A stretch of DNA of 15,944 nucleotides from a virus (taxonomy: Duplodnaviria > Heunggongvirae > Uroviricota > Caudoviricetes), in IMG/VR virus record IMGVR_UViG_2713897073_000008; one strand, 5' to 3'. Position numbers and translations under genes: made by a program. The notes beneath the pieces were generated by a model. It was given only the letters and a program-made list of their open reading frames with translations. It did no database searches and had not been told where the DNA came from. Positions 1-14,842 of the stretch are shown in pieces (positions within the stretch are counted from its first letter, which is position 1; each line of letters opens with the position of its first letter).

Positions 1-267
1 TTACTCTGCAGGTGAAGTCGGCCACTCAATATCAGGTGCGGTTGATGTATCAACACGGTTCAGCAACACCCGATACTTCTTCCAGGCTTCCAGCAACGAG
101 TTTTCTTCCTCCGTTGCGATCTCCAGATCTACAGCATCCTGAAGTGGCGCAATATGCTCACTGAATTCCTGGATGTAGAACTGTGTGGTGACGGTCTTCC
201 AGCCATTCGGCTCCTGCTGTATCGAAGCATACCAGGCTATTTCAATATCGCTATGCTGCGGCAGCAT
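1..267 (-). CDS. tfa: Tail fiber assembly protein (Tfa), short 88 aa form retaining the conserved C-terminal domain
   Basis: C-terminal ~45 aa ([48 protein letters not shown]) match the conserved C-terminus of lambda-type Tfa as I recall it. The protein is about half the usual Tfa length, so the N-terminal part is replaced or truncated. TAA stop at 1-3. Confidence 0.65.
20..71. repeat. 52-bp conserved core of the tfa 3' end, direct-repeat copy 1 (2 mismatches to 1069..1120)
   Basis: ggccactcaatatcaggtgcGgttgatgtaTcaacacggttcagcaacaccc here versus the same string with A and C at the two capitalised positions at 1069-1120. Flanking sequence is related but more diverged. Confidence 0.8.
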
Positions 268-323: not shown

Positions 324-992
324 ATGGTGAAATTAATGAAAAAAAACACAGATGATGGGGCTAAAATTTACACACCACTTACCCTAAAGCTTTATGACTG
401 GTGGGTTTTGGGAGTATCAAATCGGCTTGCATGGGGATGTCCTACAAAGGAACACCTTCTTCCACACTTTCTGGAACATTTAGGTAACAACCATCTGGAT
501 ATTGGTGTTGGAACTGGGTTTTACCTTACTCACGTACCTGAGAGTAGTCTGATATCTTTAATGGATTTGAACGAAGCTAGCCTGAACGCGGCATCGACAA
601 GGGCTGGGGAATCAAAAATTAAACATAAAATTAGCCATGATGTTTTTGAACCTTATCCCGCGGCATTACATGGTCAATTTGATTCCATTTCCATGTTTTA
701 CCTTCTTCACTGCCTGCCTGGAAATATATCTACAAAAAGCTGTGTAATACGCAATGCGGCGCAGGCCTTAACTGACGATGGAACTCTATACGGAGCCACA
801 ATTCTTGGTGACGGCGTTGTGCACAATAGCTTCGGTCAAAAACTGATGCGCATTTACAATCAAAAAGGCATCTTTTCAAACACAAAAGATTCCGAAGAAG
901 GCTTAACACATATACTCTCAGAGCATTTCGAGAATGTTAAAACCAAGATTAAAGGTACTGTAGTAATGTTTTCCGCTTCAGGGAAAAAATAG
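324..992 (+). CDS. Class I SAM-dependent methyltransferase (222 aa); alternative start at 336 has the better SD
   Basis: Glycine-rich motif I (HLDIGVGTGFYL) typical of Rossmann-fold SAM methyltransferases. Visibly AT-rich gene on the opposite strand to the flanking tfa sequences. TGGTGA 5 nt upstream of ATG 336. Confidence 0.6.
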   Translation: MVKLMKKNTDDGAKIYTPLTLKLYDWWVLGVSNRLAWGCPTKEHLLPHFLEHLGNNHLDIGVGTGFYLTHVPESSLISLMDLNEASLNAASTRAGESKIKHKISHDVFEPYPAALHGQFDSISMFYLLHCLPGNISTKSCVIRNAAQALTDDGTLYGATILGDGVVHNSFGQKLMRIYNQKGIFSNTKDSEEGLTHILSEHFENVKTKIKGTVVMFSASGKK

Positions 993-1439: not shown

Positions 1440-2654
1440 TCAATAGCGGATTGTCCCTACATCCATTTCTGGCGAATCCACTAACCAGAAATTATCTGGC
1501 TTTACAGCCAGAATGATCCAGGCAGTGTTTGTTGTTGATGACCAGGAAGGCAGCACATCGTATGCCGGGTCATCGCAAGAATCACGATAACCGTACTCAT
1601 TAAAAAGTGGAGCCATTGCTGCCACAAGATTCACCGCATTCAGCTCATTACCCAGCTTGCGCTCAAAAAGTGCCACACCTGCCGTTCCTTCCACCCACAC
1701 GCCACGGCTGTGACCACTATAACCATAATCAGGGTGGTACGGTGTGTAACCCGTGGTTTCCCTCGTACCAAATAAAAAACGCCCCATATATTTTCGGCAC
1801 TTAGCCGCTTTCTCAGCATCAATATTGGCAACAAACAATCCGCCCCAGGAAGACTGATCCAGCGCCGCTGCGTTGTCATAGTGGGTTGAATGAACCCCCT
1901 GTCGAAATCGGCCTTCATCTTCCACCCACAGACCTCTGATGATGCTCTTTGCCAGCCTGTCAGCCCGCTCACTGAAACCGTCAAATCCCAGCCGTCCCAT
2001 CAGTTCAAACAAAAACCAGATATCAACGTTATGCTCCAGTGCGCACCATTCGGCGACAAAAGTTTCATCAAAATTGCCGTCCACATAACGCCCCTGCCCC
2101 CCTTTATACAGGCCTTCACGCAGGTCGCCTGGTGTGCTCACCAGAAAAGTATCCAGCCAGGCAATGCCTGCCAATAGCTTTTCTCTGACCCGCGCAGTCT
2201 GAGTACCGTCCGGATACTTCTCCAGATAGAAAGCAAGAGCATAATAAACCCATGCCGCATTGCCCAAGCGGTAATAGGTACGCGGTGACATGGCAGACAG
2301 CCTGTTAACAAAAAACTTTACTCCACCGTTTTCATCAACAAGCGCACACAAGCCCGCAACGTATCTTTCTACAGCCTCATGTCGCTGAACCATCAACGCC
2401 AGTGCTGCCAGCGCCTGGTCATACGTGTAACACCGATCTTTCATCACCCTGATCACTTCGGGGTCTGCGTCCTCCGGCATCCAGTAGCTACGAATGAGCA
2501 GTGGAAACTCCAGCGTTGTGATCCACGCATTATCCTCAATCCGAATAAGACGAAACTGTTTTGCTCCCGTCCAGCAACGTCTGAAATAGAAAGTTCCGTC
2601 ACTATTCAAATTAGCGTCGCCGTTAAAATACTCTCCGGTTGTATAAGCATACAT
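1440..2654 (-). CDS. Hypothetical protein (404 aa), function unknown; may be a frameshifted continuation of the upstream portal-like ORF
   Basis: Long uninterrupted ORF with ordinary-looking codon usage and several antisense shadow ORFs. Its 5' end overlaps the 3' end of the portal-like ORF by about 49 bp in another frame. No motif I can name with confidence. Confidence 0.45.
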   Translation of the reverse strand: MYAYTTGEYFNGDANLNSDGTFYFRRCWTGAKQFRLIRIEDNAWITTLEFPLLIRSYWMPEDADPEVIRVMKDRCYTYDQALAALALMVQRHEAVERYVAGLCALVDENGGVKFFVNRLSAMSPRTYYRLGNAAWVYYALAFYLEKYPDGTQTARVREKLLAGIAWLDTFLVSTPGDLREGLYKGGQGRYVDGNFDETFVAEWCALEHNVDIWFLFELMGRLGFDGFSERADRLAKSIIRGLWVEDEGRFRQGVHSTHYDNAAALDQSSWGGLFVANIDAEKAAKCRKYMGRFLFGTRETTGYTPYHPDYGYSGHSRGVWVEGTAGVALFERKLGNELNAVNLVAAMAPLFNEYGYRDSCDDPAYDVLPSWSSTTNTAWIILAVKPDNFWLVDSPEMDVGTIRY

Positions 2655-3235
2655 ATCGACTTTATACTTTTCAGGTTCAGCCTGTTGCTCTCATCACTGG
2701 TCATGGGAATAAAGTCCGGCTCGAGCGCCTCCAGCCAGAAATGAACACCGGCAGAAGGCGTCAGGCTGTTTATGCGCCCGGAAACCATCTGGGCAAACAC
2801 CTCACCATCGCGCAGCCAGGTACGCAGCATCAGACGTTCCAGCATCGGACGGGTAAACTGCCCGGTGACCTCCGGACTGACAGACCATTCACTCCATCGG
2901 GTGCGTATCTCCGCTGCCAGATCACGGGCAATGGCCCCATTGCGTAATACCGGATGTGGCTCGACAATAATCCCGTTTTTCCCCACCACCCGTTCTTCCA
3001 GCTTGTCAAATACACCAATGACCAGATCGTGGTTGTTATCAAGGTAACGGGCCTGCTCACGTAACGACACGGCCCCGTACTGGCTTAACTGATCGGCAGT
3101 TCGGTTCTCCCGTCGGGCTTTGTGTGTCCGCGTCGTTTTTACGGCCTCATAAGCCTGGATCACCGCACGGGAACGCAGCCTTGCCGCTTTCCATCCTGGT
3201 GAAAAAACGCCAATCACATCATCAAGAATTGCCAT
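2606..3235 (-). CDS. Phage portal protein-like, N-terminal region only (209 aa); apparently truncated or frameshifted
   Basis: Arg-rich N-terminus followed by SLREQARYLDNNHDLVIGVFDKLEERVVGKNGI, resembling the conserved N-terminal motif of lambda-family portal proteins as I recall it. The ORF is far too short for a portal (~500+ aa). Start overlaps the end of the upstream ORF, as is typical of phage head genes. Confidence 0.4.
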   Translation of the reverse strand: MAILDDVIGVFSPGWKAARLRSRAVIQAYEAVKTTRTHKARRENRTADQLSQYGAVSLREQARYLDNNHDLVIGVFDKLEERVVGKNGIIVEPHPVLRNGAIARDLAAEIRTRWSEWSVSPEVTGQFTRPMLERLMLRTWLRDGEVFAQMVSGRINSLTPSAGVHFWLEALEPDFIPMTSDESNRLNLKSIKSICMLIQPESILTATLI

Positions 3236-4069: not shown

Positions 4070-4144
<75 letters not shown>

Positions 4145-4147
4145 ATA

Positions 4148-4223
<76 letters not shown>

Positions 4224-4225
4224 AC

Positions 4226-4302
4226 TGGACCGCCACCGGGGACTCGAACCTCGCACACTCAACTTAAAGAGTTGACGCTCTTTCCTGATGAGCTAGTGGC
4301 GG
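4226..4302 (-). tRNA. Atypical tRNA-like gene; canonical fold gives anticodon UUU (Lys) with non-canonical C33 (a register shift would give UCU, Arg)
   Basis: Reverse complement CCGCCAC-UA-GCUC-AUCAGGAAA-GAGC-G-UCAAC-UCUUUAA-GUUGA-GUGUG-CGAGG-UUCGAGU-CCCCG-GUGGCGG-U-CCA: 7-bp acceptor stem (C1-G72), 4-bp D-stem with GG in D-loop, 5-bp anticodon stem, T-stem with one A/C mismatch, CCA encoded. Only 2 nt and 1 nt from the neighbouring tRNAs. Confidence 0.55.
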
Positions 4303-4303
4303 T

Positions 4304-4379
4304 TGGTGGCCCTTGCTGGATTTGAACCAGCGACCTGGCGATTATGAGTCGCTCGCTCTCACCACTGAGCTAAAGGGCC
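4304..4379 (-). tRNA. tRNA with anticodon CAU, most like tRNA-Ile2 (lysidine-modified, AUA-decoding; ileX/ileZ type) rather than elongator Met
   Basis: Reverse complement GGCCCUUUAGCUCAGUGGUGAGAGCGAGCGACUCAUAAUCGCCAGGUCGCUGGUUCAAAUCCAGCAAGGGCCACCA; very similar to E. coli ileX as I recall it. Anticodon loop CUCAUAA. Confidence 0.8.
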
Positions 4380-6172: not shown

Positions 6173-6529
6173 TTATGATAGAATCAAGCATATACATCCA
6201 TCAATAAAGCCTAATGCAGTTTGCAGCTCCTTTCTTATAGTTCCATCTGAGCACCTGCGTTTCTTCGCGATTGAGCGTAGAGAAACACCAATAACAAAGT
6301 GAGCTATGAGCAGCTCATATTCCTCTGGTTTATACTTTCGCAACCGAGCCACACAACCGTCTATCATGATGCCTTCATCATCATCACACTGGAGACGTGA
6401 CTTTTTGCCATGTGGCAAAAGCCTCTTGAAGCCCGCTGCTATCGGTTGCCAATCGACACCGCTATTTTCTGCTGCAGCCCATGCCCCCCAGCGATCTAAA
6501 ACCTCATACATATCACGCCCCATTACCAT
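6173..6529 (-). CDS. Phage antitermination protein Q (Q82/QuuD-like family)
   Basis: Contains LDRWGAWAA...DW..IAAGFK and the CDDD...C motif I associate with the short Q family of lambdoid prophages. Sits immediately downstream of rusA, the canonical nin-Q arrangement. Start may be an internal Met (6521 or 6511). Confidence 0.7.
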   Translation of the reverse strand: MVMGRDMYEVLDRWGAWAAAENSGVDWQPIAAGFKRLLPHGKKSRLQCDDDEGIMIDGCVARLRKYKPEEYELLIAHFVIGVSLRSIAKKRRCSDGTIRKELQTALGFIDGCICLILS

Positions 6530-8321: not shown

Positions 8322-9443
8322 CTAGTGAATTTTGCCTCTAAGAGTTCGGTAAGATTGTAGTGAAACAACATCACCACTTCCTGGCAGTTCATGAACCGCA
8401 GGAAGATCATCTCCTACTAACTCATAAAAAATGTCCACTTCTATATCCATTTCATCAGCTATACGCTGTGGGTCGTATCCTAACTCTTCAAATAAAAACG
8501 ATAAAGCCCGACGGAATAACTCAGGACGCTCATGAGGGATTAGATAATCTTCTTTTTCATCAATAGCTTCCCCTTTCCGTTTCAACCCCATAAATGCAGT
8601 TCTGTACTGCTCATCAGTCAAAAGTCCTAATTGATGAGCCCTGTAAACAATGGCAGCCTTACTTACTTTCCATGTCAACTTAAATTGGCTTAGTCCCTGC
8701 CAATTTATCCTCCCCCCCACAGGTCTTGGAAAATATTTCGCCATCGACGTTCTGGGAAGCAACAGAGCAGAGGCAAAACGGTTTGCCTGGGATTCAGTTA
8801 ATCTATCCCCAGTAGAAATTCCTTCATGAAGAATCAAATGGGCAACCTCATGAGCAATATCAAAGCGTTGCCTACAAGGTGAATTTTTAGCTGTATTTCG
8901 AACAATAAAAGGCCTTCGTAGAGGAACAGACAGTGCATCTACTTCATCCGAAACGGAGTCAAATGAAGTAACAAACGCCCCAAGTTTCTCGGCAAGGCGA
9001 GTCATATTTTCAATTGGGCCAAAGCCTAAGCCCCACTCAATACGACATTTTTCTGCCGCTCGCTCGATATCTTCTTGTGTATGGACACGAAATTCAGGAA
9101 ATCGAACAGGTGACAAATTAAGGTTATCTTCAAATACATCAATAAAACGACGATAAAACTCAGCCTTAGCGAGTGTTGATAGCTTCGTTGACATCCTTGT
9201 CGAGGCGCGTTTACGAAAATGTACAATCTCTTCATTAACAGGAGAATGTTCCTGCCCTTCGAAAAAGGCGGGCTTCACGCGCAAAACCTCGGCTAATTTA
9301 TTTATAAGCTCTGGGGATGGAGTAGCTGAACCAGACTCCAGTCGCTGTACATACTGGCGTGTTTTTTCAACCTTCTCAGCAACCTGCTCCAGAGATAGCT
9401 CGTGATACAGACGAGCAAGTCTTAAATTAGTACCGTTAAACAC
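8322..9443 (-). CDS. XRE-family HTH fused to ImmA/IrrE-type (HExxH) zinc metallopeptidase domain, 373 aa; RosmerTA RmrA-like candidate
   Basis: N-terminal HTH (LSLEQVAEKVEKTRQYVQRLESG) and central HEVAH zinc-binding motif in the context typical of the ImmA/IrrE (M78/DUF955) family. GTG start with GGGTGA upstream, 10 nt after the upstream gene stop. Confidence 0.75.
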   Translation of the reverse strand: MFNGTNLRLARLYHELSLEQVAEKVEKTRQYVQRLESGSATPSPELINKLAEVLRVKPAFFEGQEHSPVNEEIVHFRKRASTRMSTKLSTLAKAEFYRRFIDVFEDNLNLSPVRFPEFRVHTQEDIERAAEKCRIEWGLGFGPIENMTRLAEKLGAFVTSFDSVSDEVDALSVPLRRPFIVRNTAKNSPCRQRFDIAHEVAHLILHEGISTGDRLTESQANRFASALLLPRTSMAKYFPRPVGGRINWQGLSQFKLTWKVSKAAIVYRAHQLGLLTDEQYRTAFMGLKRKGEAIDEKEDYLIPHERPELFRRALSFLFEELGYDPQRIADEMDIEVDIFYELVGDDLPAVHELPGSGDVVSLQSYRTLRGKIH

Positions 9444-9453
9444 ATTTCACCCA

Positions 9454-10047
9454 CTATTTGCTATTTTGTTTCTTTTCCTTCTCAGTCTTAGACGCACTGA
9501 TAGGTTCTAGTTCGATAGGTACCGGTGCTGGAGGTACATCATCGACAGAGTTCAGCATAACAACACGGTCCGCACCATATGTCCAAGTTGACACGATCTC
9601 ACCAAACACGTTATAGCCATTAAAAATGACTCTACCACCCTCGCCTTCAAATTCAGGCTTTTCAACCACAAAGCGATGCATAGTTGGAGTAGTCTCCTCT
9701 GACTCAAAGAGTCGATCAGCATCATTTCTTTTGAAAAAACCGCGTTTCTTGGGGTTATCTGCGTCATCAGTAAAGAAACGAATAGGGACATTCCCAATTG
9801 AAAACGTAAGATCCATGCCAGGATTAAGTAGTCTTAACCAGTCATATGTCTTTCGTACGCACATTTGTAGCAACGCCTGCCGCTGACGCCCAAATGTACA
9901 ACCACCACGAGTGTAATTATCATCATAGGGCGATGACAATAACTCATGAGTAATATCCTGTATCCTGAGCAACTCCTCAGCTATAATGGTTAAACGCACC
10001 TCTGTTAACTCAGGAAAGAACTCCCAAGGGAATGGATGGTTCTGCAT
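9454..10047 (-). CDS. Hypothetical protein (197 aa from ATG 10047; ORF table extends to TTG 10095), upstream partner of the HTH-peptidase; candidate toxin/effector
   Basis: GGAG SD 9 nt upstream of ATG 10047. No TM segment and no recognisable motif. Visibly AT-rich, co-oriented and tightly linked with 8322..9443. Confidence 0.55.
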   Translation of the reverse strand: MQNHPFPWEFFPELTEVRLTIIAEELLRIQDITHELLSSPYDDNYTRGGCTFGRQRQALLQMCVRKTYDWLRLLNPGMDLTFSIGNVPIRFFTDDADNPKKRGFFKRNDADRLFESEETTPTMHRFVVEKPEFEGEGGRVIFNGYNVFGEIVSTWTYGADRVVMLNSVDDVPPAPVPIELEPISASKTEKEKKQNSK

Positions 10048-10082
10048 AGACACTTCTCCGCCTAATCCGTGCAAAAAACGAC

Positions 10083-10128
10083 TTTTGTCAACCAAGATAT
10101 TGGTGCATATTCATAATTTTGTCAACCA
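10083..10128 (-). promoter_or_regulatory. Two direct repeats of TGGTTGACAAAA (each containing a consensus -35 TTGACA) immediately upstream of the 197 aa gene; candidate promoter/operator
   Basis: Minus-strand TGGTTGACAAAA at 10128-10117 and 10094-10083, 34 bp apart, between the upstream terminator and the start codon. Confidence 0.3.
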
Positions 10129-10497: not shown

Positions 10498-11544
10498 TTA
10501 CCATATGGAGTTGTGAATGAACTTTAATTCATTTTTTATTTTGTTAACAGATAAATTCACGGATGTCCTAACTCTATTCACAGTCATTGCATCTCCTGGA
10601 TTTAACAACTCTAATGGTTTAGACTTAGCACTTGACATTCTGCCACTACCCAGAAAATCATCAAGAATCACAATGTGATTATTAGGATCATCTGTTGTAA
10701 AATTACTAATATTTTGTCGAATTACCTCTCTTACAGCTTCGATGTACATTTTTGTCTGTTGATTTGGTTTATTCCTTGCTCCTGCCACTGTTGACCATCC
10801 GCAATGGGTAATAACCACCATCTGAATTTTTGGTGTATGGCCATCAGACGGCATTATCTTTCTAAATTCTGATGTTGGTTTAGTCAGAGTATCAATAAGT
10901 AATCTTAATGAATTAATCGATTGCTGATCTGTCCTCACTGGAACTATTAAAGCATCTGTTGCATGCCAAGATAAATGCGTCGCTCCAGAGAAAAAAGGTG
11001 ATGTATCAATTAACGCTTTTGTAGTACCAGTTTCAACCATTTCTCTGGCTATTTCTTTCTTCAGAGAAAAAAGAATTGTATCAATAACAACCTGCTGAGT
11101 AGCCCCAGAAATTGTTCTGGCTTGAGCCAGAGCATTCGCCATTTGCGTAGGTAGAAGATAAAGTTGACTATCAGATTGAATAAAATAGTTATTCTTGCCC
11201 GCAAACCAAGCATTAGTTGATGATACTAGCTTTGCAGCACGCGTTGCAAATCCAAGCCCTGGAACAAAATAAGGCATTAAGAGGTCATTTGCAGTTGTGC
11301 TAGACGAAGATGCATAATTATTGTCAAAAAAATATGATAAATTTCCTTGCGGGCACGTATCCACGATTAATGCGTTATCCGCCAAATATGACAGATTAAA
11401 AGTTAAAGATGTCTTACCAATGCCTCCCCGTAAATTACATACTGTATATTTATCATATTTCGGCAAATTAAGACTTCTTACATTACCGTCAGCAACTTCG
11501 AATTGACGCTCTATCAGAGCATTAACATTTGATTCACTAGTCAT
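10498..11544 (-). CDS. ParA/MinD-superfamily P-loop ATPase-like protein with degenerate signature residues (348 aa)
   Basis: Deviant Walker A-like NLRGGIGKTS (R in place of the signature K of KGGxGKT) followed about 20 aa later by ALIVDTCPQGN (ParA/Soj motif LLIDxDPQGN with D to C), and a later ALIDTSP hydrophobic-D motif. Very AT-rich gene with AT-rich flanks. Confidence 0.6.
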   Translation of the reverse strand: MTSESNVNALIERQFEVADGNVRSLNLPKYDKYTVCNLRGGIGKTSLTFNLSYLADNALIVDTCPQGNLSYFFDNNYASSSSTTANDLLMPYFVPGLGFATRAAKLVSSTNAWFAGKNNYFIQSDSQLYLLPTQMANALAQARTISGATQQVVIDTILFSLKKEIAREMVETGTTKALIDTSPFFSGATHLSWHATDALIVPVRTDQQSINSLRLLIDTLTKPTSEFRKIMPSDGHTPKIQMVVITHCGWSTVAGARNKPNQQTKMYIEAVREVIRQNISNFTTDDPNNHIVILDDFLGSGRMSSAKSKPLELLNPGDAMTVNRVRTSVNLSVNKIKNELKFIHNSIW

Positions 11545-12028: not shown

Positions 12029-12484
12029 CTAAGCGCCATGATTTCCCTCATGCACAACCTGTTCACCGAATGTCTCTCGAAAACCATTCTGGTAAAATGC
12101 CAGTACACGCTGCATAGCTTCGCTCTTCCGGCACTCGCGACAGATTATGTTCTGACGCCTGTCGTAGCGACGTATTTCTCCGTCAGGTAATGACCAGATA
12201 AGGTCCGGATCAACCGCAGATGGTTTCTTCAGCTTTGCCCTTGAGAGCTTTTTACGGGCATTTTGCCAGTCCTTACGCGCCTGTTCAGACGGGAATAACC
12301 CGTAACCAGAGTTGTATACATCGCCACTGGCAACCAGCTCTCTGGCCAGAACGCTCATCAGATATCTTGTTGCCCCAGTTTTAGTTTCCAGTTGTCGTAA
12401 CGTCTCGCGCCCACTCTGGCGTACGAGTTCAACAACCTGCCCTTTAATTTTTTCCCGCTCTTCTTGTGTAAAAACTTTTGCCAC
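12029..12484 (-). CDS. Hypothetical phage protein (151 aa) in the replication module position downstream of the O-like gene
   Basis: ORF following the initiator gene. Basic, possible winged-helix-like segment (ETLRQLETKTGATRYLMSVLARELV), CxxC pair (CRECRK). No Walker motif, so not a DnaC-type loader. Confidence 0.5.
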   Translation of the reverse strand: MAKVFTQEEREKIKGQVVELVRQSGRETLRQLETKTGATRYLMSVLARELVASGDVYNSGYGLFPSEQARKDWQNARKKLSRAKLKKPSAVDPDLIWSLPDGEIRRYDRRQNIICRECRKSEAMQRVLAFYQNGFRETFGEQVVHEGNHGA

Positions 12485-12524: not shown

Positions 12525-13601
12525 TTACCCCCTGAAGCCCGGCGGAATTTCGTTATCCGGTTCAGAAATATGATTCACACAACGCTGGTTGTTCGTGCCG
12601 CTTACCGGGAGCAACCAGGGGTTCTCAAAATTCCGGTCCGGTCCAAAAAACGTCGTCGCTCGCTGAACAAATTCCGTTCCCGTTTTCCCGGTAGCCGCCA
12701 AGTATCTTGCGTAACGCCTCACGCCATCCAGCATGGCCTCTGGTGGCACCCCCTCGCGTAATCTGGCCTTCCAGGCACTGAAAGCGGATTTCTTCGGGTT
12801 TGCCCCGGCACGCAACGGGTATTCCCGCCAGACCTGTTCGAACACATCAGGATAATCCACTCGTCCCACAGGCTGCCCGGTGTTTTCCGGGACTACCCGA
12901 TCGGCTTCCCGCTGAATGGCGGAATCGGCTTCAGGCTGCTGAAGTTGGTGTGATTGCTCCTGCCTTGCGGTCATCACCTGCTGCACAGCGCCCGAATCGG
13001 CTTTCAGCGCATACGCTGAATCGGCTTCCGGTGTCGTGCCTGCGGGCTGGCCAGGAGTGACGGTCTGAACATCCCCTGCCTGGTTCGTGGCGTTTTTTAC
13101 GCCATGGACCATAGTGTTTTGATCTTCTTGATCTGTATCTTTATCTGTATCTTTATCTGTCGTGACTCGTCGTGACATGTGCGTGACATTTCGTGACTCG
13201 CCGTGACAATCGCCATTTTGTTCCCGCTTTCTTTCCCTCTCTCGCTGCGCCCTCTTGCGCTCTGCCGGAGATTTTGCGGTTTGCGAAATATTGCCGTTGT
13301 CCTCTTTCAGCACCTGGCGTTTTTCCCATCCAGTGATTAAATCACCATCAAGTACCCGCCCCTGCATCGTCTGCAAAATTGAATCAATTACCTCTTCTGT
13401 CACGTCGAGCGCACTTGCCAAATCTTCTGTCGTGACATCAATGTGACCTCGCGTGACATTTCGTGACGCGCTCACCAGGAGGTGGATATACACTGCCATC
13501 ACTGTTGCAATTGGCTGCCCTGACACCCTGGCAATTGTTCGCCACTTAGGGTCATTTGGCATGTCATGCCATAATCTGAGCCAGGCGTTAGCCATACTCA
13601 C
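12525..13601 (-). CDS. Phage replication initiation protein (O-like / replisome organiser), 358 aa, containing ori-like iterons within its coding sequence
   Basis: Position after the Cro/CII-like genes. Low-complexity acidic/KDTD-repeat linker encoded by the iteron and AT-rich repeats. Lambda O similarly contains ori within the gene. Family assignment by synteny and architecture, not by alignment. Confidence 0.55.
   Translation of the reverse strand: MSMANAWLRLWHDMPNDPKWRTIARVSGQPIATVMAVYIHLLVSASRNVTRGHIDVTTEDLASALDVTEEVIDSILQTMQGRVLDGDLITGWEKRQVLKEDNGNISQTAKSPAERKRAQRERERKREQNGDCHGESRNVTHMSRRVTTDKDTDKDTDQEDQNTMVHGVKNATNQAGDVQTVTPGQPAGTTPEADSAYALKADSGAVQQVMTARQEQSHQLQQPEADSAIQREADRVVPENTGQPVGRVDYPDVFEQVWREYPLRAGANPKKSAFSAWKARLREGVPPEAMLDGVRRYARYLAATGKTGTEFVQRATTFFGPDRNFENPWLLPVSGTNNQRCVNHISEPDNEIPPGFRG
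13131..13207. repeat. Ori-like array: 12-bp tandem repeat ATCTGTATCTTT x2.5 followed by five CGTGAC iterons at about 10-bp (one helical turn) spacing
   Basis: CGTGAC at 13161, 13171, 13182, 13192 and 13202. Adjacent A/T-rich 12-mer tandem at 13131-13160. Confidence 0.6.
13399..13467. repeat. Second cluster of CGTGAC / GTCACG iteron-like repeats inside the initiator gene
   Basis: GTCACG at 13399; CGTGAC at 13431, 13452 and 13462; TGTGAC at 13442. TCTGTCGTGAC is shared with the first array. Confidence 0.5.
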
Positions 13602-13666: not shown

Positions 13667-14092
13667 TCAATGCACAGCCACAATATTTCCTGCAGGGCCA
13701 CCACGATTCATCTGGTTGAAACCAGCGATCGCCACTGCGACAAAATCATCAGCGTCTCTCACCAGTCGTTCCCGCGTCTCCACTAGTTCCCGAAAATACG
13801 CTGAGCTATGACTGCGCATTCGGGCCACCAGCAGAGGTGGCATTGCTTTTTCGATAGCTGGTAACAACGCCTGAATTTTTTTAACCGCATCAGGGGTGTC
13901 TTTCTCCACCCAGCGGAAAATTTTCTGAGTATTGCGAGCCAGGGCTTCCGGATGGCTGTCGTCATACAGTTCCGGGAACGTCATTCCCAGCTCGAAATAC
14001 GCTTTGGTAATTTTCGCAGCCGGTACTTTTTCGCCGTCCGGATGCGCCCAGGCATTCATCGCCATGCGGATGTGTTCATGCTTGATTTTCAT
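13667..14092 (-). CDS. YdaT-like / CII-like phage regulatory protein (141 aa)
   Basis: Second gene of the rightward operon after the Cro-like HTH, overlapping its stop (ATGA). Size and position match Rac YdaT (about 140 aa) and CII-type regulators. No alignment performed. Confidence 0.5.
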   Translation of the reverse strand: MKIKHEHIRMAMNAWAHPDGEKVPAAKITKAYFELGMTFPELYDDSHPEALARNTQKIFRWVEKDTPDAVKKIQALLPAIEKAMPPLLVARMRSHSSAYFRELVETRERLVRDADDFVAVAIAGFNQMNRGGPAGNIVAVH

Positions 14093-14343
14093 GAATCAAC
14101 TCCCATCAGCTTTTTCGTAGTAGTTTTATTCCTGCCAATAGTTAAAATTGCATCGGCAGAAAATAATCCGTTTGATGCAAGAGCGATTTTTTCAGCGTAA
14201 TTTGTTTCGCCGGTATATTCTGTGCGAGGCAATTTTCCGTTATCCATCCATTTATAGATTGCTCTTTGGCTGACACCACAAACGTCGGCCACAACAGCAA
14301 CGCGAACAGTTTTGATTACATCTTCAAGTGTTTTCTGGTTCAT
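14089..14343 (-). CDS. Cro/YdaS-like HTH DNA-binding protein (84 aa from ATG 14343; the longer ORF to 14415 is rejected)
   Basis: GAGGGTG SD immediately upstream of ATG 14343. HTH segment VADVCGVSQRAIYKWMDNGKLP. Divergent from the repressor gene across a 79-bp operator region. Confidence 0.65.
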   Translation of the reverse strand: MNQKTLEDVIKTVRVAVVADVCGVSQRAIYKWMDNGKLPRTEYTGETNYAEKIALASNGLFSADAILTIGRNKTTTKKLMGVDS

Positions 14344-14422
14344 ATCACCCTCACAATGTGAACTTTGAGTACATGCCATAACAGAACTGACAGTACATTC
14401 AAGAGCGAATATCATTGAACTT
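14344..14422. promoter_or_regulatory. Divergent promoter/operator region between Cro-like and repressor genes, with two AGTACAT heptamers 24 bp apart
   Basis: AGTACAT at 14368-14374 and 14392-14398. The repressor ATG has no SD, consistent with a leaderless PRM-type transcript. Confidence 0.4.
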
Positions 14423-14842
14423 ATGGTTCATGAAGATAAAGCGCGTAAAGAGTTCGCCAGTAGGCTTGCGCTAGCCTGTGAAAACGCTGGTTATGAACAA
14501 CATGGAAGGCAGGCAGAAATTGCCCGTCGAATGAAATTAACACCAAAAGCGGTTAGCAAATGGTTTAATGGCGAAACAATTCCTCGCCGGGAGAAATTAA
14601 GGGAATTAGCAACACTAATAGGAACAACACCAACCTATCTTTTGGGAGAGGATACAGAAGAAAGTGGACAGGTACGTTTCTATCAGGAGTTAAATCCAAG
14701 ACAAAAAATCATCATTGACCTTCTGGACGAGCTCCCTGACAGTGAGACAGATGAACTTTTAAAAACTCTTGAAGAGAAAAAACAGAAGTACAATGCAATT
14801 TACGAAGAGTTAGCACGAAAGAAAAAACAAAAAGCCTCTTAA
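14423..14842 (+). CDS. XRE-family HTH prophage repressor (cI/RacR-like, 139 aa) without a recognisable S24 peptidase domain
   Basis: N-terminal HTH (QAEIARRMKLTPKAVSKWFNGETIP), K/E-rich C-terminus. Divergent from the Cro-like gene; no obvious SD (leaderless-like). Confidence 0.7.
   Translation: MVHEDKARKEFASRLALACENAGYEQHGRQAEIARRMKLTPKAVSKWFNGETIPRREKLRELATLIGTTPTYLLGEDTEESGQVRFYQELNPRQKIIIDLLDELPDSETDELLKTLEEKKQKYNAIYEELARKKKQKAS

Follow-up and report, generated by a model that had tools for sequence, protein, structure and literature searches.

A probable replication origin inside the initiator gene of a lambdoid prophage

Background

Does the replication initiator gene of a lambdoid prophage carry, within its own coding sequence, the origin at which the encoded protein would act? 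The question is raised by IMG/VR virus record IMGVR_UViG_2713897073_000008 (Duplodnaviria; Heunggongvirae; Uroviricota; Caudoviricetes), a stretch of 15,944 nucleotides that was analysed as a whole and is called the window below. The initiator gene occupies 12525..13595 on the minus strand and encodes 356 amino acids from an ATG at 13595; the mechanical open reading frame (ORF) begins at a GTG at 13601. Its product belongs to PHROG 3729, 'replication initiation protein' (phrog_3729, E=7e-257), and the NCBI cluster that contains it (P0001, 5786 members) bears the name 'phage replisome organizer'. A first-pass annotation, made from the letters alone, had noticed short repeats and an A/T-rich repeat in this gene and likened them to lambda ori. 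That reading is supported here by arrays and a tract that are conserved, synonymous sites that are frozen and a motif that switches in concert, and from sequence comparison we put the probability that the element is the replication origin of the prophage, lying inside the gene of its own initiator, at roughly 0.78. An origin within an initiator gene is of an already known, textbook kind. What distinguishes the present one is a second array in the coding region of the DNA-binding domain, the concerted evolution of the motif, and a candidate specificity code of one residue. A prior description of the origin of this family was not found in the searchable literature, outside which most older subscription papers lie.

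Anatomy of the element

The repeated unit is a hexamer that reads CGTGAC on the plus strand and GTCACG on the sense strand of the initiator gene. In the order of transcription, the parts of the element are:

13431-13467, minus strand: array A, with GTCACG at 13462-13467, 13452-13457 and 13431-13436 and the variant GTCACA at 13442-13447
13399-13404, plus strand: single inverted hexamer 33 bp past array A, encoding D-V-T (sense-strand sequence CGTGAC)
13161-13207, minus strand: array B, five GTCACG copies at plus-strand positions 13161, 13171, 13182, 13192 and 13202
13117-13160, minus strand: A/T-rich, purine-asymmetric tract, ACAGATAAAGATACAGATAAAGATACAGATCAAGAAGATCAAAA on the sense strand, a 12-bp unit in 2.9 copies, 30% GC
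13081-13111: GC-rich palindrome TGGTTCGTGGCGT-TTTTT-ACGCCATGGACCA with 13-nt arms, directly after the A/T tract

The five CGTGAC repeats that the first-pass annotation had described as phased at about 10 bp were recovered at 13161-13207 with spacings of 10, 11, 10 and 10; read on the sense strand these become 10/10/11/10, and the copies lie in frames 1, 2, 0, 2 and 0. Tandem Repeats Finder delimited the same 10-bp-period array at 13159-13208 and, beside it, the reported 12-bp A/T-rich tandem repeat (TCTTTATCTGTA x2.9, 13126-13160). The second cluster, noticed about 250 bp away, was found to consist of three exact copies, one GTCACA variant and one inverted copy. Its direct copies, array A, are spaced 10/10/11 in reading frames 2, 0, 1 and 0, and lie 260 bp upstream of array B and the A/T tract. 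With a hexamer every 10-11 bp, the copies of an array therefore fall on one face of the helix. The repeat unit of 10-11 bp has a conserved core of 6-7 bp, without internal inverted symmetry. Five hexamers lie within 50 bp and nine within 310 bp; this clustering was above that in all of 2000 dinucleotide-preserving shuffles of the window, in which the maxima were 3 and 4.

Array B encodes CHGESRNVTHMSRRVTT at the start of a disordered linker, and together with the tract it encodes ...CHGESRNVTHMSRRVTT DKDTDKDTDQED..., residues 130-160, between the winged-helix and C-terminal domains of the protein. Array A encodes residues 43-56, within the N-terminal DNA-binding domain. The earlier claim that the iterons encode a low-complexity linker thus holds for the first cluster and the A/T tract, but not for the second cluster. 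We propose that array B represents the origin iterons proper and that the A/T tract is a putative DNA unwinding element (DUE). GC content dips to 0.30 at 13120-13159, and two GATC (Dam/SeqA) sites lie in the tract 9 bp apart, at 13121 and 13130. On the plus strand the tract reads GATCTGTATCTTT, which we take to resemble the GATCTnTTnTTTT 13-mers of oriC.

Other kinds of signal were also sought. No DnaA box was found in or near the element, the nearest being at 12465-12473 with the window count at chance level, and no known RNA family overlaps the element. Counts of internal sigma-70 promoters were at chance, and the one weak match, at 13183-13210, is formed by the iterons themselves.

Selection on the repeats as DNA

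The nine sense hexamers use all three reading frames and encode VT, SR, CH and GH. Codon choice was compared in 22 GTCACG-class genes with a mean pairwise nucleotide identity of 0.70: codon entropy was 0.165 bits at hexamer codons (10 codons) versus 1.52 bits at other conserved residues (42 codons; Mann-Whitney p=1.2e-6). Inside the hexamers Val was GTC, Thr was ACG, Gly was GGT and His was CAC, each in 22/22 homologues. Because the hexamers lie in three frames and their synonymous sites are frozen, the repeat is a DNA feature and not a protein one; a repeat at the protein level was ruled out by the same frame and synonymous-site analysis. As in iterons, at least three direct repeats are conserved at the DNA level beyond coding needs. 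The inverted copy is also kept in most GTCACG-class homologues, its Val being GTG in 20/20, and no equivalent of it was seen in GAACGC-class genes.

The reading frame has left its own mark on homologues with another motif, GTAACG. These genes have 15 copies of GTAACG in frame 1 and 8 in frame 0 but none in frame 2, where xxG TAA CGx would contain a stop codon. Their frame-2 copies are GAAACG or GTCACG, and some of their arrays are spaced 10/11/10, thereby skipping frame 2. This is a clean example of dual-coding DNA in which the limits of the reading frame, through avoidance of the TAA stop, visibly shape a protein-binding array.

The A/T tract showed comparable constraint. Mean GC of the 40 nt past array B was 31%, against 55% for the gene, in 42/42 homologues, genes of 62-69% GC included (Wilcoxon p=1.6e-8), and tract GC did not correlate significantly with that of the gene. 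Purines make up 75% of the tract's sense strand in the 42 homologues. In 11.7 kb of tract sequence the string AGATAA was counted 125 times; the remaining sequence of these genes, 40 kb, had 8 copies, which makes it about 53-fold enriched, and it is read in two frames, as D-K or as I-K/I-R; therefore the tract, too, is selected as DNA. A ...AAAGATCTAAAAGATAAAACC string is conserved after the tract in distant homologues (L004, L011, L018, L025 and L045).

Natural variants (P0002, P0003 and P0019) show that the copy number of the arrays differs between strains, and they include a clean deletion of array B, tract and palindrome. In P0019, an E. coli protein of 302 aa, a clean in-frame deletion has taken out four of the five hexamers of array B along with the A/T tract and palindrome. 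It was found on four contigs, one of which is a 5.1-Mb chromosome, and may represent an origin-dead, domesticated prophage copy.

Conservation and concerted change of the motif

The family was surveyed in 52 genomic loci of Gamma- and Betaproteobacteria with the same N-terminal domain (43-99% identity), together with phage genes. Absence of the repeats from homologous initiator genes had been named in the first-pass annotation as evidence that would overturn the origin reading. The opposite was found: about 45 of 55 homologous genes, from many genera and down to 38% protein identity, keep arrays A and B and the A/T tract at the same positions. GTCACG/A stands at both +128..159 and +386..430, counted from the start codon, in about half of the homologues; more distant ones have CGAACGC or GTAACG(C) at both array positions instead. 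Array B has 3-6 copies in homologues.

In all 43 genes with both arrays the motif class was the same in A and B (27 GTCACR, 5 GTAACG and 11 GAACGC), and none was discordant. Two still more distant phage genes, taken as an out-of-sample test, were also concordant. Ralstonia phage Firinga (38% identity) carries GCAACG(C), a fourth motif, in each array, with 5+4 copies; a purine-rich tract and a GC palindrome come after them, and the next gene is a dnaB helicase. Podovirus ct2G2228 has GAACGC in both. A reduced version of the arrays occurs in cyanophage Cy-LDV1. On a neighbour-joining tree built from 79 residues outside the array-encoded loop, the GTAACG class stands at at least four separate positions, inside both other clades, so the joint switch appears to have been repeated, as far as a weak tree of this kind can be read. 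In L045 and P0103 the two arrays are almost one and the same string, which suggests that gene conversion has homogenised them.

The motif class tracks the initiator lineage and not the host taxon or order: Enterobacterales carry GTCACR and GTAACG, and Betaproteobacteria carry GTCACR and GAACGC. This distribution argues for a phage-encoded reader. As also expected of iterons, the motif co-evolves with its cognate initiator, with shared ancestry and physical linkage as caveats.

Genomic comparison further found that the initiator gene is mosaic and that the arrays are inherited together with the N-terminal domain. Phage genes from Pseudomonas and Aeromonas match its N-terminal ~450 nt, a stretch that includes the tract and both arrays, at about 70%; these genes have other C-termini and keep both arrays, in 4+4 and 4+3 copies. 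Conversely, in Shiga toxin (Stx) phages 75/02 and POCJ13 the C-terminal 480 nt of the initiator gene are 82% identical and the N-terminal domain is unrelated; GTCACG was not found in their initiator genes, which have (GAACAG)n in the linker in its place. In the 75/02 gene (L005, 3100-3170, minus strand), (GAACAG)x5 is followed by GATAAAACC and then by the same palindrome, at the equivalent linker position, and this region may be the corresponding origin of a different specificity. In L047 and L055, from Serratia and Pantoea, the same N-terminal domain is fused to a C-terminal part with a 'GISxNPWAR' motif, which we take to be GIY-YIG-like, and the genes have periodic CTACG/CGTAG repeats in place of ACG-core arrays.

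The initiator and a candidate recognition residue

The initiator was modelled with AlphaFold2 (AF2) from a 12-sequence alignment, with a mean predicted local distance difference test (pLDDT) score of 56. The parts of the protein relevant here are encoded as follows:

13311..13595, minus strand: N-terminal winged-helix DNA-binding domain in the AF2 model (residues ~1-95)
13221..13265, minus strand: basic helix AERKRAQRERERKRE (residues 111-125; modelled as a helix from 110 to 127)
12600..12863, minus strand: helical C-terminal domain, a swappable adaptor module (residues 245-332, pLDDT 85-94)
12528..12587, minus strand: C-terminal tail QRCVNHISEPDNEIPPGFRG (last 20 residues), nearly identical to the host DnaT tail

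The N-terminal model comprises helices 3-11, 16-25, 29-48, 56-62 and 67-77 and a beta hairpin at 81-88 (pLDDT 46-70). The loop encoded by array A, residues 43-52, lies between helix 3 and the helix-turn-helix (HTH) with pLDDT <50, and residues 128-243 form a disordered region. The topology is compatible with that of the Phage_rep_org_N type. Profile matches were weak and sub-threshold: TIGR01714 spanned its full profile (1-119) with 15.5 bits (cut-off 49.8; E 0.015), PF09681 (Phage_rep_org_N) gave 12.8 bits (cut-off 23.3; E 0.12), and HTH_Crp_2 also matched the N-terminal domain weakly. Foldseek against PDB gave no significant structural match (best E 1.9, with weak similarity to winged-helix regulators), and phmmer against PDB matched only the DnaT tail and a designed repeat protein.

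Residue 117, in the basic helix, varies with the motif. It is Q in 26/27 GTCACR genes, Y/F in 5/5 GTAACG genes, W in 11/12 GAACGC genes and R in Firinga of the GCAACG class. Gene L042 lies in the GAACGC clade, has GTCACR iterons and has Q at 117. Gln117 of the window protein (codon 13245-13247) is thus a candidate base-reading specificity residue, and the pairing of Q, Y/F, W and R with GTCACG, GTAACG, GAACGC and GCAACG would amount to a small natural 'recognition code'. Such a code could be used to study the evolution of initiator-origin specificity, to build orthogonal phage-derived replicons, and to predict which prophages in one cell would be incompatible in replication or would cross-activate.

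In the winged-helix fold itself, motif classes are discriminated only by the residues that array A encodes. We regard it as a long shot that the loop encoded by array A (43-56) contacts the DNA, so that the iteron would encode part of its own reader in a self-referential system. If it did, gene conversion between A and B would alter the site and the protein that binds it at a single stroke, and would so provide an inherent way of reaching new and mutually incompatible origin specificities.

The linker itself is polymorphic in length. A 36-nt direct repeat (ATCGGCTTC..., copies 96 bp apart, 12900-13031, minus strand) lies in the disordered part and encodes repeated PEADSA peptides; the common E. 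coli variant P0004 (324 aa) is without one of the 36-nt copies.

Proposed mechanism and alternative explanations

From the arrangement above the following sequence of events can be proposed. The initiator would be expressed from the early rightward operon, after the Cro-like gene and the cII/YdaT-like gene. Its winged-helix domain and basic helix (~111-125, with Gln117 as the likely base-reading residue) would bind the GTCACG hexamers. The five copies of array B, probably with the four of array A, would be occupied cooperatively to form an O-some-like nucleoprotein complex, which would destabilise the adjacent A/T tract 13117-13160 as the unwinding element, with the GC palindrome 13081-13111 bounding the melted region. 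The C-terminal domain and DnaT-like tail may then recruit the host helicase-loading machinery.

Several points weigh against an origin at this site. The searchable literature holds no report of binding, melting or autonomous replication for any family member. The 6-7 bp cores are far shorter than classical iterons of 17-22 bp and are without the dyad symmetry of lambda. The N-terminal model is of moderate confidence, at pLDDT 46-70, and has no significant Foldseek match. Nine members are without recognisable arrays in one or both positions (L032, L034, L046-48, L051, L055, L042 for array A, and Microcystis phage Mwe-JY25, in whose initiator gene the arrays were not found). Shared ancestry inflates the covariation counts, and the number of switches rests on the 79-residue neighbour-joining tree; moreover, only ~40 bp separate the codon for residue 117 from array B, so that part of the covariation could reflect their joint transfer in a single recombination tract.

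Three other explanations of the arrays were weighed. They may be genuine initiator sites with a mainly regulatory role, in roadblock autorepression or handcuffing, and with unwinding perhaps elsewhere. This applies above all to array A, which lies 260 bp from the A/T tract and early in the coding region, where bound protein could block elongation, and which is under DNA-level selection of its own; the iteron plasmids P1 and F have second iteron arrays for control. In 42/42 genes, however, array B abuts the purine-asymmetric tract of low GC, the classical arrangement of iterons plus DUE, and no other A/T-rich repeat element was seen in the replication module. A regulatory role of array A would be compatible with origin function of array B and no substitute for it, and we consider a mainly regulatory function of the arrays unlikely. 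A different reader of the hexamers, such as a host protein or the cII/YdaT-like or Cro-like regulator, is very unlikely. It is true that binding by the initiator is deduced by comparing sequences, and that the class-specific residues of the winged helix, being only those encoded by array A, are a trivial consequence of the DNA motif. Yet the motif class follows the initiator lineage while the same host orders hold different classes, and residue 117 of the initiator covaries with the motif. The arrays also go with the N-terminal domain into phages of Pseudomonas, Aeromonas and Ralstonia that have different neighbour genes, and they are absent from a gene that has the same neighbours and C-terminus with another N-terminal domain.

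Scarcely credible, by comparison, is that the repeats are a by-product without sequence-specific function, either of linker repeats at the amino-acid level or of slippage or recombination junctions at module boundaries. A disordered linker is indeed encoded there, copy number differs between strains, and the breakpoint of the N-/C-terminal mosaic adjoins the A/T tract. Against this, the hexamers give the unrelated peptides VT, SR and CH/GH in three frames with frozen synonymous positions, array A lies inside a folded domain, and arrays 260 bp apart have changed in concert. Helical phasing of 10-11 bp has been maintained, and the A/T tract resists the GC pressure of the host. The by-product explanation is largely refuted by the results on frames, synonymous sites, TAA avoidance and the tract. 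For the origin reading, the comparative data give a precise predicted map consisting of iterons, unwinding element and palindrome.

The palindrome

In the form GGTyCATGGCG-A5-CGCCAsnGAACC the palindrome comes after the tract in each of the five genes that share this C-terminal module, among them the one whose N-terminal domain is foreign. Stx phage 75/02 and L139-L141 conserve it, and one change in it appears to be compensatory. Family-wide, GC-rich inverted repeats are enriched after the tract (p=1e-6) and none was found in about one third of the genes, by a crude detection that considered perfect stems and a rough tract end. Since the hairpin is enriched but not universal, and its detection is rough, the palindrome is kept only as a probable secondary part of the origin. 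It might instead serve as the intrinsic terminator of an antisense (plus-strand) transcript, or reflect a peptide, LVHGEKxA, that is conserved at the protein level. A terminator-like score on the plus strand, with 13 pairs and a T-containing tail, agrees with the former, and conservation of the encoded NTLVHGEK in proteins with the same C-terminal module agrees with the latter. In lambda ori, however, a palindrome also follows the AT-rich tract, as it does here. Genes with other C-terminal modules have GC-rich inverted repeats of unrelated sequence at this same place (p=1e-6), and one change in an arm is compensated in the other. We find it rather doubtful that the palindrome is a terminator or a peptide signature instead of an origin part.

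Comparison with known origins

Lambda ori lies inside gene O, and variants with six iterons are known from Stx phages (PMC7466680). The present element resembles it as an origin in mid-gene within an early rightward operon, with direct repeats and then an AT-rich tract in the direction of transcription; in lambda, the repeats are bound by the N-terminal domain of the initiator, and the iterons encode the inter-domain linker, so that extra iterons add residues (PMC7466680). A further likeness is that N-terminal domain and origin are exchanged as one specificity module, combined with a swappable C-terminal domain for partner binding. The iterons themselves differ, being inverted repeats of ~19 bp in lambda and cores of 6-7 bp every 10-11 bp, without dyad, here. 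The second array in the coding region of the DNA-binding domain is also a difference, and so is the window's want of a P-like or DnaC-like loader gene, with a C-terminal tail that mimics host DnaT. Homology to lambda O was sought and rejected: no Phage_rep_O match was obtained with the full-length protein (E<=0.01) or with its N-terminal part (E<=5), and PHROG 3729 is not the lambda O family. Because the initiator is not a homologue of lambda O, the 'O-like initiator' of the first-pass annotation stands by position and analogy and not by homology.

In phage SPP1, oriL lies inside gene 38, which encodes the replisome organizer G38P, and similar origins occur in replisome-organizer genes of Gram-positive phages (PMC6316719). 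As in SPP1, direct repeats together with an AT-rich DUE lie inside the initiator's own gene, which here bears the NCBI name 'phage replisome organizer', and there are two separate sets of repeats, which in SPP1 are the initiator-binding oriL and oriR (PMC6316719). The two sets here are 260 bp apart in one gene and not 13 kb apart, only one set adjoins an A/T tract, and the similarity to Phage_rep_org_N and TIGR01714 is sub-threshold (E 0.12 and 0.015).

For Salmonella phage L, six imprecise 11-bp repeats (TGTCCAACGGA) in gene 18 have been proposed as the origin (PMC8022706). Both cases have short iterons of one helical turn in a lambdoid initiator gene and an origin deduced from sequence, and an AACG core is common to TGTCCAACGGA and the GTAACG, GAACGC and GCAACG classes. 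A single array was described in phage L, in contrast to the two found here. Homology to phage L gp18 was rejected, as tblastn with the N-terminal domain gave no match to phage L or P22.

The Rac prophage of E. coli K-12 has an active origin, oriJ (PMC3945230). Its neighbourhood has the same order of repressor, Cro-like YdaS, cII-like YdaT and initiator; the K-12 initiator YdaU, however, is a DUF1376 protein with another N-terminal domain, and the DnaC-like YdaV comes after it. No DUF1376 match was found in the window protein, which is followed by a DUF977/LygF gene, and identity with oriJ was rejected. The initiator types being different, the element in the window therefore represents a different origin specificity.

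C-terminal domain and helicase recruitment

The likeness of the C-terminal tail to DnaT, the primosomal (replication-restart) protein of the host, was found by phmmer against PDB (6aep, 2ru8 and 9zbt) and by the NCBIfam DnaT profile (positions 156-179). Many homologues whose C-termini otherwise diverge share the ...IPPGFRG ending, and the last 20 residues look like a short docking motif that mimics the host. PF17948, the single-stranded DNA (ssDNA)-binding domain of DnaT, had no match in the window initiator, of which only the last ~24 residues are DnaT-like; it is present in relatives with the same N-terminal module, namely an Aeromonas phage (E 1e-16) and E. coli O157 variants. The C-terminal domain of DnaT forms filaments on ssDNA at the site of helicase loading, and the binding partner of its extreme tail was not stated (PMC13377028).

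Relatives with the same C-terminal domain (L005, L139, L140 and L141) have a DnaC/IstB-like gene that overlaps the initiator stop codon, and those with other C-termini have a helicase gene next. Neither a DnaC/IstB-like loader nor a helicase gene follows the initiator in the window. There, as in phages Tritos and Evi, in which the loader gene is likewise missing, the DUF977/LygF gene is directly next, and the phage presumably relies on the host loader. From these sequence features we infer that the initiator may feed the melted origin into the host DnaB/DnaC pathway through its C-terminal module.

Distribution and genomic neighbourhood

The full-length initiator gene was found in 1646 of 5426 complete E. 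coli genomes (~30%), and E. coli phages Tritos, Evi and vB_EcoS-640R1 have nearly identical copies; the initiator also occurs in Pseudomonas, Aeromonas and Ralstonia phages. Its position in the window is that of a lambdoid early-right operon, with these neighbours:

14423-14842, plus strand: CI-like repressor
14089-14415, minus strand: Cro/HTH protein, two genes before the initiator
13667-14092, minus strand: cII/YdaT-like protein, directly before the initiator gene
12029-12484, minus strand: DUF977/LygF-Ren-like gene, directly after the initiator gene

Elsewhere in the window, a cluster of four tRNA genes (4073-4379, minus strand) adjoins the region of the Q antiterminator (6173-6529, minus strand), an arrangement that many prophages of the Stx-like and lambdoid kinds have. 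At 41-244 on the minus strand lies a match to Rfam IS009 RNA, and at 324-992 on the plus strand a class I methyltransferase gene. A truncated portal fragment of lambda type (209 aa; 2606-3235, minus strand) matches positions 3-149 of the 354 in its profile. The late region of the prophage appears disrupted. The stretch from the replication module to the nin/Q region contains, on the minus strand, a gene for an HTH and ImmA/IrrE metallopeptidase protein (8322-9443), a 213-aa ORF without assignment (9454-10095) and a gene for a ParA-like ATPase (10498-11544), which could be accessory or defence cargo.

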